A stretch of DNA of 64,000 nt from Pocillopora verrucosa (lineage: Eukaryota): positions 5,177,331 to 5,241,330 of the forward strand of contig NC_089313.1 of assembly GCF_036669915.1 (NCBI RefSeq), read 5' to 3'. The translations under genes and the position numbers were made by a program. Positions 7,921-36,308 of the stretch are shown here, one piece after another; position 1 is the stretch's first letter; every line of letters starts with the position of its first letter. The notes below the pieces were generated by a model, which made no database searches, was not told the DNA's origin, and saw only the letters and a list, made by a program, of their open reading frames with translations.

Positions 7921-8019
7921 CTTAGTAACTTGACTTGTAGCATTAGCAACTTCTGCTCGTTCAAACTCTCTATCTGCCAGAAGGGACTGGATTTGCTTCT
8001 CTCTATCCTCCAGTGCTTC
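7921..8019 (-). CDS. CLIP1: CLIP1-like coiled-coil exon (EALEDREKQIQSLLADREFERAEVANATSQVTK)
   Basis: 99 nt, phase 0. Acceptor taatag|, donor aag|gtattg. Aligns to human CLIP-170 [31 protein letters not shown]. Confidence 0.85.
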
Positions 8020-9860
8020 CTATTAGTTAGTTAAATCCAATTTCAGGTCACAAATTTACTCACTTTGTTTCACACTGTCACTTAATTCTTTTCACCCCTA
8101 TATCAGTCTACATATTCTCTATACTGTTCACCATACATTTCCTAATAAACTGACAAGGAGAATTTGTTTAACAATCAAGAGCTTAGTTGATGATCATTTC
8201 CTTTATTCTCACGACCTTAATGTTTGATTCAGTGGTGATCTTGTGAGGAGAAATTAAATGCTGGTCACTTTTAGGGGTCAAAAGGTTTATAAACAATCAT
8301 TTAGTCCAGGAAGCATTAGCATGAAAAAAAAAATTGATATTTAGTGGATTTTTTTCCACTTTTGATTAATACCCATTTGTTAAAAAAAATTCATTTTAGC
8401 CATTATAAATTGCCCATAATTTTTTCAGCAAGATACATCAACAATTTGAAGGATTTTTTATATTTCATTTACATTTCTAAATTCAGTGATACTGTTTCAA
8501 AAGAACAGTATCGTGCATTTATCATTTATATATTACAGCCATTGATAAATGACCAGTAACTACTACATGAATAAATTTTAATTTCAACATGAGTGTTTAT
8601 GTTGGCCCTCTAGTAAGTAAATTTATGTATTTTTACCAAATATGAATGCTAACCCTTTCACTTGCTATGATCTCATTAGTAATTCTCTTTACTGTCTGCA
8701 ATAATTTTCTTATAATATTAGTTGGGAGAATTTGGCATTAGATTGACTAATAATCCCCTCTTTGATATCTATTCTCATCACTTCTCTGCTCAATATTGTC
8801 TTGGTATTGTACAGAGAAATTCTGTCTTGGTCACCCATAGGAGTTGAAGACAGACTTCTGGCACAAATTTCACCTATCACATGATCGTCAGTCAGAGTAA
8901 ATTTTTTCTGCACAAGCTTAGTTAAGCTTTAACCATTAAAATTTAGATTTTAACAGCCCATTGTTTGACTGGTCACCAAGAACATGTTCTTACCACACAG
9001 TTTATTATTACATTTATTATTAACAGTAGGTAAAATTTTTCTATTAAGTTTATTTACCTTTTTAGAGTTTCTCTTACCTCCTTTTTTTTAACAATATAAC
9101 CTGAAATATCTCTCATTACGGTAGATGTCTGAAAAACAACATGCTGTTAAGTTTTTATCCCATGTATAAGAATTAAAAAGTCTTAAGTTCATCAAAGTTA
9201 ACTCAGGTATGCTAACATTTAAAAGTGACACTTTTCTTTGTGTGCAAAATATTTTAGGTTAGGCTGTACAAACCATTACACAGACTTAGTAAAAAACAGT
9301 TCTTAGGAGCTTGCTTGGGTAATTCAAAGCAAATATGTGCTGATTTCATTTCAGAAAATCAGAAAAGTAATCAAAAGCTCTTGTTGTTTTGTACACAAAT
9401 GGTGCACCCATTGTTCACTAGCATGTGTTTTTTTCCTAAGGTGAAGTGCATTAATTTTATACTTAGCAATACTTTATGTTAATAATGGTCTCACAGTCTG
9501 GCCACTGCAACTGCAGATAGTGGTAGTTCCCAACACTGCTAGTCTCCATCAGTTACCAAGTGTTACTGGTTATTTGTCAATTGATAAAGGAATGTTTCAT
9601 TTTAATAAGACTACCTCTAACAACTGTGATGGGCACAATTTGATCCTTGATTGAGAAAATCTCTTTAGAGCCGAGAAAAGATTAAAATTGTTGTGGTTTA
9701 TGTTTTCACCAGTTTGTTGTTATCTATTTATTCTTAAAGGTGAAGAGCAGTCCTCTAAGATCCAAGCCCTCTTTGTTCCCAGTCCACAGCACTAAACATT
9801 AAACCACTGTCTCTGCTAGTTATCAAACAAGCAAATTGAGCAAATAAGAAAGTTAATAAC

Positions 9861-19654: not shown

Positions 19655-19990
19655 AAATACTATAGGGCTGAATTTTTTACAGGCCTTTTTTTCATTCTTG
19701 CTTAAGTAGAATTCATTGATGTGAAGATTGCTTCCATGTTCATTTCTTAAACTCCAGTTCATAGAAATGATTTTCATAAATTCACAGTCATTGATTCATC
19801 TCTTCCTGGGTTTATTACGAACCAACAAAATGACTAGCTCCCAGTTGGCTTGTTAGCTCAGTTGGTAGAGCTCTGCACTGGTATTGCAGACGTCATGGGT
19901 TCAAATCCTGCACTAGCCTGAGTTTTTTCAGGCCTTTTTATCTCTACTACCTAAGAAGTGTTCATTACTGCAAAGATTGCTTTCATATTC
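19655..19990 (+). mobile_element. tRNA-derived SINE-like unit(s), tandem partial duplication, in KMT5A intron 2
   Basis: The string …ctgaRtttttt(a)caggcctttttt…aagattgcttYcatRttcatttcttaaact… occurs twice (19661-19770 and 19918-19990). The second copy is preceded by the tRNA-like head. Confidence 0.5.
19847..19918 (+). tRNA. tRNA-like sequence (anticodon loop CTGGTAT, i.e. GGT/Thr-like). Probably a pseudo-tRNA or SINE head rather than a working tRNA.
   Basis: GGCTTGTTAGCTCAGTTGGTAGAGC…GGTTCAAATCC has Pol III A box (TAGCTCAGTTGG) and B box (GGTTCAAATCC). The anticodon stem is perfect (CTGCA/TGCAG). The acceptor stem has a T-T mismatch and the T-stem is poor (ATGGG/CCTGC). A TTTTTT tract follows immediately. 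The 3' flank is duplicated upstream at about 19661-19770. Confidence 0.4.
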
Positions 19991-21823: not shown

Positions 21824-21991
21824 CTGACCCTTACATATTTATTCTATTTTGGGAAACAGGCTTACCATATTTGGGATGTCTGATGAAACTTTCCGTAAAA
21901 TTTCCTTGTTTGTAATTGTACACAAAAGGCCTTAGTTATTAGTTTTCTGGAGGAGAAGAGACTTACCTTTGAATTAGTCGTTGAAGGTAAA

Positions 21992-22122
21992 ATGGAATCG
22001 AAAAGCATCGACAGAGAAGCCGTCTTAAAATCACTTGTCCTGAACAATTCAACCACAGATGGCCAGCCTAGAAAGAGAAAAAGACTTGACAATTTATCTG
22101 CCGAAGAAAGGGCTCTTCGAAG
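21992..22122 (+). CDS. XBP1: XBP1 exon 1
   Basis: Encodes MESKSIDREAVLKSLVLNNSTTDGQPRKRKRLDNLSAEERALR(R). Donor ag|gtgggc. Human: …KRQRLTHLSPEEKALRR. Confidence 0.88.
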
Positions 22123-22240
22123 GTGGGCGATCCTTTGTGAACGAAGCAGTGAATCGAACCTTCTATCAAGTGCGATGTATCTCGAAGAAGGTTTCTGTTT
22201 TTGTGTAGGCTCAATGAAATTTCATTTTTGTGTTATCTAG

Positions 22241-22337
22241 AAAACTGAAGAACCGAGTCGCAGCTCAAACTGCTCGTGACAGAAAGAAAGCACGAATGAC
22301 AGAACTAGAAGAACTGGTTGCGCAGTTAGAGAAAGAG
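22241..22337 (+). CDS. XBP1: XBP1 exon 2 (bZIP basic region)
   Basis: Acceptor tctag|, donor gag|gtaata. Encodes KLKNRVAAQTARDRKKARMTELEELVAQLEKE, near-identical to human KLKNRVAAQTARDRKKARMSELEQQVVDLEEE. Confidence 0.93.
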
Positions 22338-22924
22338 GTAATAGTCAAAAAAAAATCTTCCCAAGTCTTCCCTATTTTTAATCTTATACTTTATTAACCT
22401 GACTTAGCGATAAACAGATAATTTCTCGCGATTGATAGAAATTCACTCGAATTTCAACTGAGAAACGTTTTGATACACTTCCTTCGTTAGTTGTGTGAGC
22501 AGAACTGTTTTCATTCTCCCCTGTTTCATCGCAAGCGGTTTTGAGTTTTTAGTTTCGAATCAGTGTTTCGTTTTTGTTTAAGTTGTCGTTGAAAGACTTT
22601 CGTTGAAGAAGTTGTTTTTATGTCTTTCGCCACTAAAATTATCTCAAAATGGAAGCGTAATGCTTCTCGATGTTGGCCCCTCTCGAGATCATTATTGATC
22701 GTAACTAATAATAAATCTTTTGAACTCGGTATATTTTTCCAATATTAGATTTTTTTAATGCGTCATCCACTCCGGGTAGGCGGAAATTATAAAGGAAATG
22801 TACCAAAAGTTTTGTTTATATGATTGTGCAATGATACACCAAGACCAGTAACGTAGTTATTCCTCAATACAATGCCTTGTTGTGTTTTAAGACCGCCCAA
22901 TTTCTATTCTTTGTGTTCTTACAG

Positions 22925-23217
22925 AACAGAACCCTTCGCTTGGATAATGAAAGTTTGAGGAAACACTCGGAAGCTGTAACAATCGAAAACTCGGAGTTAA
23001 GAGTCCGACTTGGTCTTACACCCCCCGTGTCACCAGCTCCAGTGTCTACAAATTACACACCAACCTCAGAAGCCAGTCCAGATACTAAATACAGTCCAGT
23101 TGTGATCAAGAAAGAAGCAGAATATAACGAGTATGCATCACTCTCAGTTTCTCAGCAGCAGGAACGCCTGATTCTGTTTCTTTCTCTGATCACGACTTGG
23201 ATGATGATCAACAACAG
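22925..23217 (+). CDS. XBP1: XBP1 exon 3 (leucine zipper). Holds the IRE1-spliced unconventional intron and the XBP1u hydrophobic tail in the unspliced frame.
   Basis: Acceptor cttacag|. Encodes NRTLRLDNESLRKHSEAVTIENSELRVRLGL… (human ENQKLLLENQLLREKTHGLVVENQELRQRLGM). The unspliced frame ends …SQQQERLILFLSLITTWMMINNR and then a stop in the intron. The +1 frame from about 23156 reads (S)AAGTPDSVSFSDHDLDDDQQQ and ends in phase 0 at the donor cag|gtaatg. Confidence 0.85.
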
Positions 23218-23891
23218 GTAATGGTGATATTTTTTTGATTTTGTGGGTAAAATTTATTTTTAAACCTTAAGAGAGTGAAAGACTTGATAGTGAAATTAGT
23301 GGGATAATGTCTGAGGTGCTGAACTTTTTACTCACTTAGTTGTTATCCACTGAAAATTCACTTTAACTTAGAAATGTGGCAATATCCTCATTTGACGTTA
23401 CTAGGTAACGCTGGTCATGTAATGGATTTTTGTTGATGAGCAGAACAGCTGGTCCATCACTGGTGGGATTTGAAGATGTCTGTTCAGCTGTTTGAATTTA
23501 TTATCAGTAATTCTGTAAATTTTTTACACCAATTTTTTTTTCATTATGAATGGCTTTCTAAATGGTCTTCTACCCTTTCACTCCCAAGAGTGACCAAAAA
23601 ATACTTTCTCCTCACAACATCAATACAACATCAAACAGACGAGAAACGGGAATATGAAATGATATCAATTAGGGGGTTGTCATTTGTTTCAACACTTAAT
23701 TATCAAAACCAAACCTATAAATATTTTCTGGCAGACAGTAAGTATAATTACTAAAGAAATCTTGGGAGTGAATGGGTCAAGAGTATGGGAGGTTGAATTA
23801 AAAAAACAATGAGATGGAATGTGTATCATAAGCATGATAAAAGTAACCTTTGATAGGCATGATTTTAACCCATGATTTGGTGTCTTTTCAG

Positions 23892-24251
23892 CATGACATG
23901 GATTTTGGCCTTTTTGAACTTGATGGGGAAGGAGACTGCCTCACACTTATTCAGCCCAAACAAGAAGCCACAGCAGCCCCAACCTGCTGTCAACTCAACA
24001 CCAACCCAGATGCAAAAGAGGAAGTCAGAACCACAGATGGCACAGTCCCAGAATCAAGCAGCAGTGACATAACAGTAGCAGACTTAGTTGGAATGGAATG
24101 CGAGTCTTTGGACTCTTTGGATGATCTCTGGAACCTGAAAGATTTCTCCAAGGAGTTCAAAGACCTAAATGCGGAACCTGAAATGTTAGGGTGTGAAATG
24201 TGGGAGGAGACCTTCACAGAAGTATTGTTCCCATCACTTTTGGTTGTCTGA
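23892..24251 (+). CDS. XBP1: XBP1 exon 4, XBP1s-frame C-terminal activation domain with stop
   Basis: Acceptor ttttcag|. Ends …CEMWEETFTEVLFPSLLVV*, matching human XBP1s …HSWEDTFANELFPQLISV*. It is in frame with exon 3 only after removing an intron whose length is 2 mod 3 (for example 26 nt). Confidence 0.85.
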   Translation, partial: HDMDFGLFELDGEGDCLTLIQPKQEATAAPTCCQLNTNPDAKEEVRTTDGTVPESSSSDITVADLVGMECESLDSLDDLWNLKDFSKEFKDLNAEPEMLGCEMWEETFTEVLFPSLLVV

Positions 24252-31478: not shown

Positions 31479-34400
31479 ACACAAAAATTAAAAAATACTT
31501 ATTAAAAGCTTACTGAGATGAATGTACATTTCCTGAATTTCCTTGAATAAGCAACAATACTCTTAAAAGTGCCCTCTCTTGGAAAGCGCTTATCCCCTAA
31601 GCCATAATATCAAATAAATGCCCTCTTGAATAGATACGCCCCCTTTTCTCCTTCTCTTACTTTGTCTATTAGAGGGGATACAAGGAAAAACTGTTTCTAT
31701 TGTCACTTAATTTGAAACTTTTTTTAAGCTTCAACCACAGCAGAATCAGTGTAGGTTAATAGTTTAATTCTTAAAAAGTGCTCCATGATTAAGTGCCCTC
31801 CTTCCAATAAGCACCCCTCCTTTTAGCCAGACACTTATCCGAGGAAATAAAGTAATTCCATTTTATCAAAGACCCACCATGCCACAAGAAGGCAAGGAAG
31901 AGGATGGACCCCCATGATGAGATTTATCTCTTGAAATATTTTGAACCTACATCTTCCTCATGATGGAGTAATCAAGCTTGTGTATATATGTCCCAAATGA
32001 AAACATCTATGATATGTCACTATTTTCAACTGTAAAAAACTGTAAGAGGTAAAGTCTGCATTCCAGCCAAGTACCCAATCCAGGTTACCCTTTTTCCATT
32101 ACAAATCGCTGGTACCCATTTATACTCCTGGGTGGAGAGCGAGGCACTGTGAAAGTAAAGTGTTTTGCCCAAGAACACAACACATTATGACCTCAATATG
32201 TCTACCCCCAGACTTCTCAAACTAGGACTTAGAGCATCTCTACTCTTAACCCTTTAACTCCCAGACCAAATTTGTAATTCTCCTAAATGTCAACCATACA
32301 ATTCTTATAATGTTAGTTCAGAGAAGTTAGTATTGGATCAACTTATCATCCCCAAATTGATATTTTTCTGTATTCTCATCGCTTGTCTGGTTGACATTGT
32401 ATTGATATTGTAAGGAGAAATTCTGTCTTGGTCACTCATGGGAGTTAAAGGGTTAACTGTTAAAGTTACCATTTATCCTGGAAAAAAGTTCTGTTGTATT
32501 TGTTTATTTACCTCCTTTTCATTAGCATCAAGAAAGGCCTCATTTGCTTTCAGAATCAGCCCCTCATCCTCACCAAGAATAAACACATCTTGGATACCTT
32601 GCTCAAGCTTTTCACCAGGCAACAGGAAGAATGACTTCTCTCCCTGAAAGACAGGAACAAATTCAAGTTATCTTTTAGTAATCTCAATATAATGAAATAA
32701 ATAATATTTTAATGTGCGGGCGACATATACATTATGAACATGATAAGATGATCCTTGCAGGTGTCCTGCACTTTATTTAATTTAATCACCAGTTCCATGC
32801 CATTCCCATTTTAACTTGGTAAGCTTGTTCAGAACCAAGATTTTGAATTATTTTGTTCATCGGAAAAAGTTTTGATTTTCCTTTTACATTCAATCCACAT
32901 TGGAGTGAAATTGTCTTCACGTCATCAGCTTTCTTTAGCATCTTTAAGGACATATCTATCCTTGAAGGAATATGCTGAAGAGATTGAAGAATGAGTTTGC
33001 ACTTGTTCTGCATGTCTTAAGTGACCTTATAACTTGCAAACTTGTAAAATAAGTTTTTCTGTGTATTTTATTTTGCTCTTTGTATAGTCACCTTGTGTTC
33101 AAAGGTGCAATTCATATCATAAAGGGGGTAGGTTTCTCAAGAAACTGTGGTGCTGTGTCAGTGAGAAAGTGTATCAGGGTAATTTAGTATTATCCGCTGA
33201 GTTGATAATGTAAATTGGCCACCATAAAGAGTGAAAAGCGAAGGGCTATAATGCTTGAAACATCAGCTTTTAAACTCTTTATAGTGGTCAGTTTAAGTTA
33301 TCAACTCAGTTGATAAAACAAATAAAATTATCCAATTCATATCATACTCCTTAAAAAAGGTTGTTTTATCGATTGACAAGTAGGTACCAGTACCTTCACT
33401 AGCCTCTTTTGTCCCAACTGGGGCCTCCCATCTTTATCAACAGGATCTAGAATGACACAGTACTGCCTGTTGTTTAGTGTTGTGATATCAACAACTCCTA
33501 CAACCTACAAGATGGAACAGGTAAGATTTGATGTATTAAATTGTAATTGTTTTACTCAAACTGTTACCAGTTAATGCATCAATAAACTACAGGGTTGGCA
33601 TAATTCTCCTCATCATCTATGGCTGCCTTCATATTCTGGATGATCAATTGAATAATATTACCTCTTCATAGACATTTGGAATATGTGCCTCTGTGTCTGC
33701 CATGGTAATTAACCACTCCTCCCCATTCTTTCGTAAAACACCTGTATCATCTTTGAATGTGCGTGTGGATTGCAGATGTAAAGCTTTCTATAATATGAAA
33801 AAATAAAAGAGGCTCAAAAGAGGCACTAGAATAATGGAATATTGACAATTCATGAGGCATTTTTCATGGATCCTCTAAAGTACTGGCTAATGCCATAGAT
33901 TTACATATGGTGTTTGAACATATTTTGCAGCACATAACCCTAATTAACTCCCAAGATGTGATTGTTTATTCTCCCCTCTAGCTGCACACTCATTTCCTTG
34001 TAAATAAGTTCAATAATTTGGCATTAGATCAAGATAACAACTCCTACCCGATAAGTTTGAGTATTCTTGTTACCTGTTTTCTGAATAATGTACAGATATT
34101 AAAGGGAGAAGTTACTTGTTGGTCACTTCTGGGAGTTTAAGGGTAAGCTTAAGGGTTGTTTAGTTCTTAACCAAAGTACAGATGCAAAGGTTGGAGAAAA
34201 TTTTTTACTTTAACTACATACCATAATTGTAGTTTACCATTATTGATTAGCATTCAAATGAGCCAGGGAAAGCTTAAACTTTGCTTTCTTTTGACTGGTC
34301 TTCACATCAGAAAGTTAACTCCACTGATTCTACAAACACCTATGGCTAAGGTGTAACTCCTTAAAAGTTCATCTTCTCACTCCCTTATTCTTAATCTTCA

Positions 34401-34709
34401 AAGAATGCAGTCAGATGACCAAAGATTTTGAAGAACTGTCACAAACATTTCCTTTCTCCATGCACAGCACAGAGGGCCTACGCTAGTACTTCTTAGTCTT
34501 TTTAAACTCTTCACTTAGAAACAACTTCAAAGAACACTCAGAAAAAAATTAAAAACTCACTTAAAGTCAAACAAAGAATTTTAAAAAAATATTTTATAAA
34601 ATAATTCAAATAGTACGCACGCTCTGATTGGCCATAAAACCATTTTACATGAGCGTATATAAACACGGTTTTCATTCCTCTTTCATTAGTTATTTTATAA
34701 AAGAAAAGT

Positions 34710-34858
34710 AAAATGGTTTCCATGTTTACATAGCCTGATGTAAACACGCGGGAGGTTGGGAGAACACTCGATAAGATACAAGATAAGATACGCTTATCTC
34801 GTGTTCTCCCAACCTCCCGCGTGTTTACATCAGGCTATGTAAACACGGAAACCATTTT
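34710..34858. repeat. Near-perfect inverted repeat (about 66-bp arms, 17-nt loop), a long hairpin, in an MVP intron
   Basis: Left arm aaaatggtttccatgtttacatagcctgatgtaaacacgcgggaggttgggagaacactcgataag. The right arm is its reverse complement with 3 mismatches. A partial third copy lies at 34636-34680. Confidence 0.8.
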
Positions 34859-36308
34859 ACATTTCTTCAATAGCATCTAGTTCCTACCCAATCAAATTCC
34901 ATGAAGTAGTTGTCCTCTGCACTATATATCTATCTTTCTTTGTCAATCAAATATGATATGTTTTTAATACATTCTTGCACCCACCTTCTCAGTCAATACA
35001 TAGGCATTTACAACATCAACCACTTCCTCATAAGCACCAGGAAGATAAGCACCAATCTTTTGAACAAGCCACTCTTCCCCAGCAACACGCAAGTTATCAT
35101 CACGATCCTGTTTGAAGATTAATTTTCAAATAATGAGAAAAAGAAGAAGTAAGATGAGGTTGCAAATTTACCTCAAAACTGTCCTTTACTTTTAAGGTAA
35201 TTTAGTATTATCAACTGTGTTCATTCTGTAAACTGACCACCATAATGAGTTTTAGAGCTGTATGTTGTTTCAAGCATTAGCCCTTCATCTTTCATTCTAA
35301 CAGAGGGTTAACACTGGCCAATTTAGTGATCAACTCAGTTGATAATAATGAATTACCTTGTTGTATTCTCCTACTGATGTAGAACCACAGTTTCCTGTGA
35401 CACTTATCCCCTTTATTCTGGATTAAGTCTCACTTCCTTTGATAAAAGGTAACAAATTAAGAATCTGGATGTTTCAAACAGAACCACCAATCTGTCTCTA
35501 GTTCAGTTTGGTCCTTGCATGTACATGTACCAAATATTATTATTCCTATACATGATAAATTAAAAAATTCCTGTCTTTAACGTCCTTACTTTAGTTTCTT
35601 TTCTTGCCCTCAGTCTGATGGCTTGGTTTGGCTGGATAATGGTGGCAAGGATGTTTTCTACCACTTCAACCTCTTTCTTTGGTATATATGTACCTGTAGA
35701 AAATATTAATAATTGTTTTTATCTAAGATTGTACTGATTAATTAAGAATTACTCATTTCTATATGCCACATCTACTACAATGCAATGAATTTCCCCAAAG
35801 ATCACTACTACAGTTGAGTAGAAAAGCATGAAACTAATTCAACAAGCTATCTAGCTGATATCATATATGATTCACCACATTCTCAGTTTCAAGTTCACAA
35901 TTCTCTTGAAGGATACCCCCTTATTACAGGAAAAGTTAGACAGCAAAATGCTCAGAAACATATAAGTATAACCTAAAAATTAAAACTAAATAATTATCAT
36001 GTTATAATTAAAAAAGAATGGCTCTCTTGAGACCCTTGCTTGATAGATTAACCTGTTAGTTCTCATTTAGATCCAACTAGTATTTCTTCCTACTGACTGT
36101 CACAGAGTTTCTTAAAATTAGACAGGAGAATGTGTATTATATCGAGTGATCAAAAGAAGAAGTTACAAGCTAATCAATACTGAAGATTAAAGACCTTAAA
36201 GGCTCTTTCAGCAAGGGTTTTTATATCACTGTACACTTTTAGCATAGCTTATCATTATAAATCATACTATTTCCTCTCAATAAGATATGAATCAACATGA
36301 GTATTACC

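Follow-up and report, generated by a model that had tools for sequence, protein, structure and literature searches.

The hairpin and its host gene

The question raised by this locus is whether a long, nearly perfect hairpin within an intron of MVP in the coral Pocillopora verrucosa is a source of small RNAs in its own right or part of something that moves. Our results strongly favour the latter. The hairpin is a palindrome at the 3' end of a single copy of a non-coding Pocillopora mobile element, whose family is young and dispersed and may be copied in a Helitron2/Helentron-like manner. The locus was analysed within a stretch of 64,000 nucleotides, here called the window, and coordinates refer to its positions unless a scaffold is named.

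By local alignment the hairpin has arms of 75 nt each (34701-34775 and 34793-34867), complementary at 71 of 75 positions and separated by a 17-nt spacer, and a repeat search lengthened the arms to 80 nt at 93%. An earlier sequence-only reading of this DNA had described arms of about 66 nt around a 17-nt loop; the inverted repeat lies where that reading had placed it and is slightly longer. The predicted RNA fold of 34600-34900 reached -134.6 kcal/mol compared with -51.7 +/- 4.4 for shuffled sequences (z = -18.7), and the minus strand, which is the sense strand of the MVP intron, folded at -151.1 kcal/mol (z = -20.9). Each arm contains one small internal palindrome, CGTGTTTACAT-N6-ATGTAAACACG, of which a degenerate version is found upstream at 34637-34671. 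There, positions 34644-34668 show 72-84% agreement with the sub-palindrome of the arm, and an exact 14-mer is shared between 34637-34650 and 34849-34862, bearing out the partial third copy that had been reported upstream of the arms. No tandem repeat was found by Tandem Repeats Finder between 33000 and 36500.

When four named MVP proteins were compared with the window (tblastn), 17 exons were matched, all on the minus strand and spanning 37981 to 26028, with the best agreement to the MVP of P. verrucosa, for which many exons matched at 100%. Single-exon ORFs, when looked up exactly, clustered with Pocillopora and Stylophora MVP, and a search with the concatenated-exon MVP protein had a top match of only 62%, to Desmophyllum, with the close relative not listed. 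Intron 5, bounded by exon 5 (35110-34985) and exon 6 (33805-33656), holds the hairpin about 115 nt in from the end of exon 5, an intronic location as given by the sequence-only reading; the element to which the hairpin belongs is oriented antisense to MVP. That reading had also held the arm to be unlike the MITE families abundant in the window, and no second arm copy was found in the 64 kb by exact or 3-mismatch pattern searches or by word-7 blastn. Because the window contains no further arm copies, the repeated nature of the sequence is invisible from the window alone.

An insertion polymorphism in MVP intron 5

Scaffolds carrying the locus were fetched via two versions of the short exon-1 ORF, which yielded 20 sequences, namely 19 Tara Pacific coral metagenome scaffolds and one contig of assembly ERZ25067899; none of the scaffolds retrieved through the 139-aa exon ORF reached the hairpin. 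In nine of the 20 (L012, L013, L014, L043, L044, L045, L047, L048, and L050) the site was empty, with 34594-34869 missing and the same junction, AAATATT/ATAGCAT, in all nine (a slash marks the insertion point here and below). The element was present in 11 scaffolds; it was read across fully or nearly so in L011, L015, L046, and L049, and the scaffold stopped within the hairpin in L016-L020, L051, and L052, as short-read assemblers commonly do when they meet a repeated palindrome. At MVP, the one locus from which our empty-site evidence comes, comparison of filled and empty alleles has a sole substitution-free solution, an insertion (probably not a precise loss) of 276 nt between T and A with no target bases duplicated. 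Among Pacific Pocillopora the intron 5 insertion still segregates for presence and absence and, lying in a single-copy gene, could serve as a lineage or population marker.

The filled alleles differ slightly from one another. The left arm of the window allele reads CGCG at a position where the other six aligned copies, including L046 from the MVP locus, read CTTG, as do the MVP-locus alleles L049 and L011. The CGCG version agrees with the right arm of the window copy, which looks like arm-to-arm conversion. The L011 allele (scaffold positions 7974-8110) has a 30-nt deletion in one arm, with ATGTAAACACGCGGGAGGTTGGGAGAACAC missing, and either the palindrome is genuinely unstable here or the assembly is at fault.

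Organisation of the element

The empty alleles define both ends of the inserted segment, within which we recognised the following parts:

34594-34869, plus strand: complete mobile-element copy of 276 bp, TTATAAAATAATTC...CATTTCTTCA, equal to the segment absent from the nine empty-site scaffolds
34594-34604, plus strand: 5' terminal inverted repeat TTATAAAATAA, which is palindromic on a small scale (TTAT-AAA-ATAA) and is the perfect reverse complement of 34690-34700
34624-34633, minus strand: putative CCAAT-box-like motif GGCCAATCAG in the 5' module, from direct sequence inspection
34637-34671, plus strand: small imperfect palindrome AAACCATTTTACAT-GAGCGT-ATATAAACACGGTTT, the third copy of the sequence-only reading, from its direct-repeat family and exact 14-mer
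34690-34700, plus strand: 3' subterminal inverted repeat TTATTTTATAA, abutting the long hairpin, from the inverted-match search
34701-34775, plus strand: left arm of the long hairpin, from local alignment, repeat search, and fold
34776-34792, no strand: spacer or loop, shortened and rearranged relative to the 37-nt tip of L022, L029, L036, and L042, from the copy alignment
34793-34867, plus strand: right arm of the long hairpin; the CA that ends the element at 34868-34869 is unpaired

The element is therefore composed of a 107-nt non-palindromic 5' module followed by a palindrome that occupies the 3' two-thirds and ends 2 nt before the 3' terminus, the inverted copy of the 11-nt repeat lying about 96 nt downstream of the 5' repeat. 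The 5' repeat TTATAAAATAA was unchanged in 6 of 7 aligned copies, L021 differing at the first base only (CTATAAAATAA), and the CCAAT-box-like motif was likewise unchanged in 6 of 7. In the predicted single-stranded DNA fold both 11-nt repeats pair with each other and close off the 5' module beside the long hairpin, and in the corresponding prediction for L022 the palindrome at 34637-34671 folds as a small hairpin. Besides the element and its hairpin, inverted matches of 11 nt at comparable spacing occur in only two places in the window; the inverted 11-nt matches about 100 nt apart in MVP introns, at 32286 and 33197-33198, may be the ends of other small elements.

Two further sequence features were noted within the element. 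Its start, TTATAAAA (34594-34601), includes a TATA-like heptamer (TATAAAA, 34595-34601) that is near-invariant among the aligned copies. Eight sites of a motif GTAAA[C]A[CT]GG or GTAAAATGG occur in alternating orientation between 34640 and 34860; five of the six matches to RTAAAMAYGS in the window fall inside the element, which also holds three copies of GTAAAATGG, one base shorter than RTAAAMAYGS. GTAAACA is a forkhead-type core, and the alternating copies may mark protein-binding half-sites.

A young, dispersed family

As a query for the family we used the translation of an open minus-strand frame that runs through the element and had been called as a gene on one scaffold. This translated search against the protein collection returned 423 clusters at E <= 0.01, all of them ENA records, and every contig fetched for these hits was a Tara Pacific scaffold or an ERZ25067899 contig. 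Query residues 21-80 were covered by all of the best 120 of the 423 clusters; by coordinate conversion these residues represent 34595-34774, that is, the 5' module and the left arm. Among the same best 120 there were at least 79 different flank-derived tails, which shows that the family has a minimum of about 80 insertion sites and probably several hundred. The sequence-only reading had held that a lack of mapped small RNAs together with hundreds of copies with target-site duplications would make the hairpin an ordinary MITE; the copy number agrees with this, and the duplications were not seen in the exact empty-site comparison.

Full-length copies, with the 5' module and both arms set in unrelated flanks, were found at five or more loci, in L021, L022-L028/L031-L035 (a single locus), L029, L036-L038, L042, and L053, and the copies at L021, L022, L029, L036, L042, and L053 have the same two ends as those fixed by the empty site at MVP. 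The element measures about 276-297 bp across the family. Four loci (L022, L029, L036, and L042) have a 37-nt tip with an extra stem formed by GGAAACCA and TGGTTTCC, and the tips of the MVP copy and of L021 are shortened. Excluding the tip, the copies diverge from the 7-copy consensus by 2.3-4.6%, and in that consensus the arms already mismatch at four of 75 pairs. Given a consensus that is already near-perfect and copies that have diverged so little from it, the near-perfect stem is a property of a young family rather than of the locus.

Several element copies are in or near genes. The L022 copy is adjoined by a RAMP4-like ORF (L022 3220-3546, a weak match to Pfam PF06624) and the L021 copy by a fragment of a dynamin-family GTPase (L021 3-713). 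A second large ORF beside the L021 copy had a weak DUF match only, and no transposase was found by Pfam in the two large ORFs beside that copy.

Some copies depart from the simple pattern. At L053 (2411-2813) two copies follow one another directly in head-to-tail order (...TTTTTTCA/CTATACAATAATTC...), without a spacer, and as the scaffold begins inside the first copy the array may be longer than two. In L039/L040 (1737-1917) and L041 (1635-1815) the 5' module and left arm are kept, the copies end at differing points in the loop, and unrelated sequence follows, which reflects either instability of the palindrome centre or assembly error. Scaffold breaks also fall inside element copies in L026-L028 (5' ends) and L053 (start), as a rule within the loop or one of the arms. 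Short-read metagenome assemblies thus break systematically at members of the family, which explains scaffold ends in these data.

Searches at the DNA level and in the literature were less productive. A 21-mer scan of JGI metagenome DNA gave one match (L030) with just 21 element bases, which we rejected as a family copy because it falls by chance within what looks like a bacterial coding sequence, presumably purA-like, and a scan of viral contigs gave 0 matches. Published full texts searched for arm 15-mers did not contain them, and a literature search on Pocillopora and miniature inverted-repeat elements found nothing.

Small-RNA gene or transposon-borne stem

The sequence-only reading had proposed a candidate hairpin-RNA, miRNA-like or endo-siRNA locus, and in its strict form this would be a dedicated gene, an miRNA-like or endo-siRNA precursor whose stem is under selection and which regulates targets. 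The stem is indeed highly stable on both strands, it would be transcribed within the MVP intron to judge from the gene match, and matches to miRNA covariance models were obtained below threshold. At gathering thresholds, however, Rfam had no match at the hairpin, its only match in the window being a distant tRNA, and the permissive scan returned only sub-threshold generic miRNA hairpins, which is what any long perfect hairpin gives. The best of these reached 46 bits against a gathering score of 87 (MIR1509), the miRNA models standing at about half of the gathering score or below. Perfect stems of 75-95 bp are, moreover, unlike cnidarian pre-miRNAs, the hairpin is not locus-specific, since the same sequence occurs at many other loci, and at MVP it is missing from the nine empty alleles. 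The covariation test, based on seven aligned copies and 86 pairs (75 in the stem and 11 in the terminal repeats), found 93.8% of cells paired, equal to the shuffle mean, with a two-sided change in 1 of 86 pairs and unpairing-only variation in 11 long-stem pairs (14 of 86 overall); the substitutions in the stem break pairs and are not compensated. Nothing in these counts points to selection for the RNA structure. We consider a dedicated small-RNA gene highly unlikely and, the hairpin being a transposon copy, have removed the locus from the list of candidate regulatory RNA loci.

Dicing of such a stem is a separate matter. In non-bilaterian animals, multi-mapping endo-siRNA clusters tend to fall on transposons (PMC6211395), and by this association repeat-derived small RNAs from the stem are plausible; if there are any, we would predict them to be a property of the whole family. 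The element resembles transposon-derived hairpin RNA or proto-miRNA loci, such as those from plant MITEs, in having an intronic, transposon-borne stem of Dicer-substrate length, and differs from them in that its pairing is not conserved and its presence at the locus is polymorphic. The hairpin at MVP needs no function of its own: the intron of the MVP pre-mRNA simply carries a double-stranded stem of about 80 bp, from which dicing might incidentally yield repeat-derived siRNAs. A bolder proposal, in which a rolling-circle element whose 3' palindrome has grown to about 170-190 nt seeds coral introns with long near-perfect dsRNA hairpins that serve as insertion-polymorphic sources of endo-siRNAs or as raw material for new miRNAs, strikes us as rather doubtful.

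Mode of movement

Our preferred reading is that of an element copied from a single strand. A Rep/helicase supplied in trans would copy the family through a single-stranded rolling-circle intermediate, with the terminal repeats and the 3' palindrome marking start and stop. Helitron2/Helentron elements and their non-autonomous derivatives (HINEs such as Drosophila DINE-1) have a short inverted repeat (about 8-18 nt), with the left copy within 0-4 nt of the 5' end and the right copy subterminal, directly upstream of a 3' stem-loop; their 5' end starts with T, they insert between T and T and leave the target site unmodified, and the described stems are of 5-10 bp within about 20-60 nt of the 3' end (PMC3627910, PMC4067079, PMC11417382). 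Helitron-like elements have been reported in Cnidaria (PMC11417382). In our element the left repeat TTATAAAATAA lies 0 nt from the 5' boundary defined by the empty site, and the right repeat TTATTTTATAA abuts the start of the arm at 34701; the latter is about 170 nt from the 3' end, compared with the 20-60 nt described. The 3' palindrome ends 2 nt short of the terminus with a stem of 75-95 bp, far beyond the described size.

Like Helitron2/HINE elements, the family is short, non-coding, and of high copy number, its first base is T, and its flanks are AT- and T-rich; exact comparison reveals no change at the target site, where a TA duplication with one substitution would also fit. As in mite HINEs, the repeat itself is palindromic. 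It also shares with them one head-to-tail dimer, and the L053 dimer could have arisen from failure of rolling-circle termination or from chance insertion next to another copy. In contrast to HLE2/HINE elements, the palindrome, at 170-190 nt, is about ten times longer than the described stem-loops, the empty site is T/A and not T/T, and there is no central microsatellite. The 64-kb window, in which no ORF exceeds 314 aa, yielded no autonomous Rep/helicase element with these ends. On balance, comparison of these features leads us to lean towards assignment of the family to the non-autonomous Helitron2/Helentron (HLE2/HINE) type. A canonical Helitron (Helitron1), which has 5' TC, 3' CTRR after a short hairpin, and insertion between A and T, was rejected, since our element begins with TTATAA..., finishes with ...TTCTTCA, and has T/A as its empty site.

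The alternative that deserves most attention is a Tc1/mariner-type cut-and-paste element with TA duplication, which we regard as unlikely. It would see two small inverted-repeat units, one at 34597-34697 with TAAAATAA and TTATTTTA as its ends and the other the palindrome from about 34700, moved together by a DDE transposase. TA does stand on both flanks in 6 of 7 full copies (TA...TG in the seventh) and at the junction of the two modules, and the empty site at MVP is one base away from the AAATATTTTAGCATC predicted for a TA duplication; in the comparison with the nine empty MVP alleles, an insertion free of duplication is the exact solution, and a TA duplication plus one substitution fits the same data. 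The base before the left TA, however, was T in 116 of the best 120 listed copies and in all filled MVP alleles and A in all nine empty alleles, a pattern that fits better with a base owned by the element than with an independent linked substitution. As for the T-T target of Helitron2 elements, when the element is read as TATAAAAT...TTCAA, a T stands at the 5' flank in 116 of 120 copies and at the 3' flank in 7 of 7 loci, but the empty site at MVP is ATATT/ATAGC. The two modules occur together, joined identically, in every full copy. Nor do the outer ends form an inverted repeat, TAAAATAATTCAAATAG at the 5' end and TTGAAGAAATGTAAAATGG as the reverse complement of the 3' end matching at about half of their bases in an AT-rich context, and on this account the element is not a classical MITE and not a foldback element either. 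With TA-duplicating MITEs (Stowaway/Tc1-mariner-derived) it has in common its small size, lack of coding capacity, many copies, AT-rich sites, strong secondary structure, TA at both flanks, and the often intronic position; it differs from them in its asymmetry (the 107-nt 5' module plus palindrome) and in showing no duplication in the exact empty-site comparison. With foldback elements it shares a long near-perfect inverted repeat, partly made of short internal repeats, and a variable, deletion-prone centre, but its palindrome begins 107 nt inside the 5' end, filling only the 3' two-thirds without forming both termini, and the 5' module has no inverted partner. Where the sequence-only reading had suggested a recent palindromic insertion or foldback transposon, insertion and transposon were right, and the symmetrical foldback or MITE form was not, given the 107-nt 5' module. 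What probability remains beyond the Helitron2/Helentron and TA cut-and-paste readings goes to something else. A SINE or retroposon was rejected for want of variable-length target duplications, of a tail, and of any tRNA, 5S or 7SL match in Rfam, and a 3-bp TWA duplication (PIF/Harbinger) because the left and right trinucleotides are never equal.

We give almost no credence to a local palindromic duplication, replication error or assembly artefact confined to the MVP locus. Template switching does generate palindromes, the hairpin is where many scaffolds break off, and the L011 allele lacks 30 nt of one arm, all of which could be read in that way. The whole structure was nevertheless read through in independent assemblies of the locus (L046, L049, and L015) and, at other loci, in the ERZ25067899 contigs L033 and L036, and the identical architecture at unrelated loci refutes a purely local origin.

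The finding of a transposon copy in an intron is an ordinary one, and the architecture of the element is somewhat unusual. What seem to be Helitron2-type ends occur in this family together with a terminal palindrome of exceptional length, which may be of interest to transposon curators.

Other features of the window

Three features outside the element may be recorded. A neighbouring MVP intron holds a second inverted repeat (35194-35224 and 35329-35359), with 31-nt arms that are 87% complementary and 104 nt apart, possibly a different small transposon. A tRNA gene on the plus strand at 19847-19919 (Rfam RF00005, 52.4 bits) was the sole match in the window at the Rfam gathering threshold. Convergent with MVP and just past its final exon (26028), ORFs on the opposite (plus) strand at about 21990-24250 carry a basic-leucine-zipper stretch (RKRKRLDNLSAEERALRR...LKNRVAAQTARDRKKARMTELEELVAQLEKE) and resemble what we take to be an XBP1-type gene.
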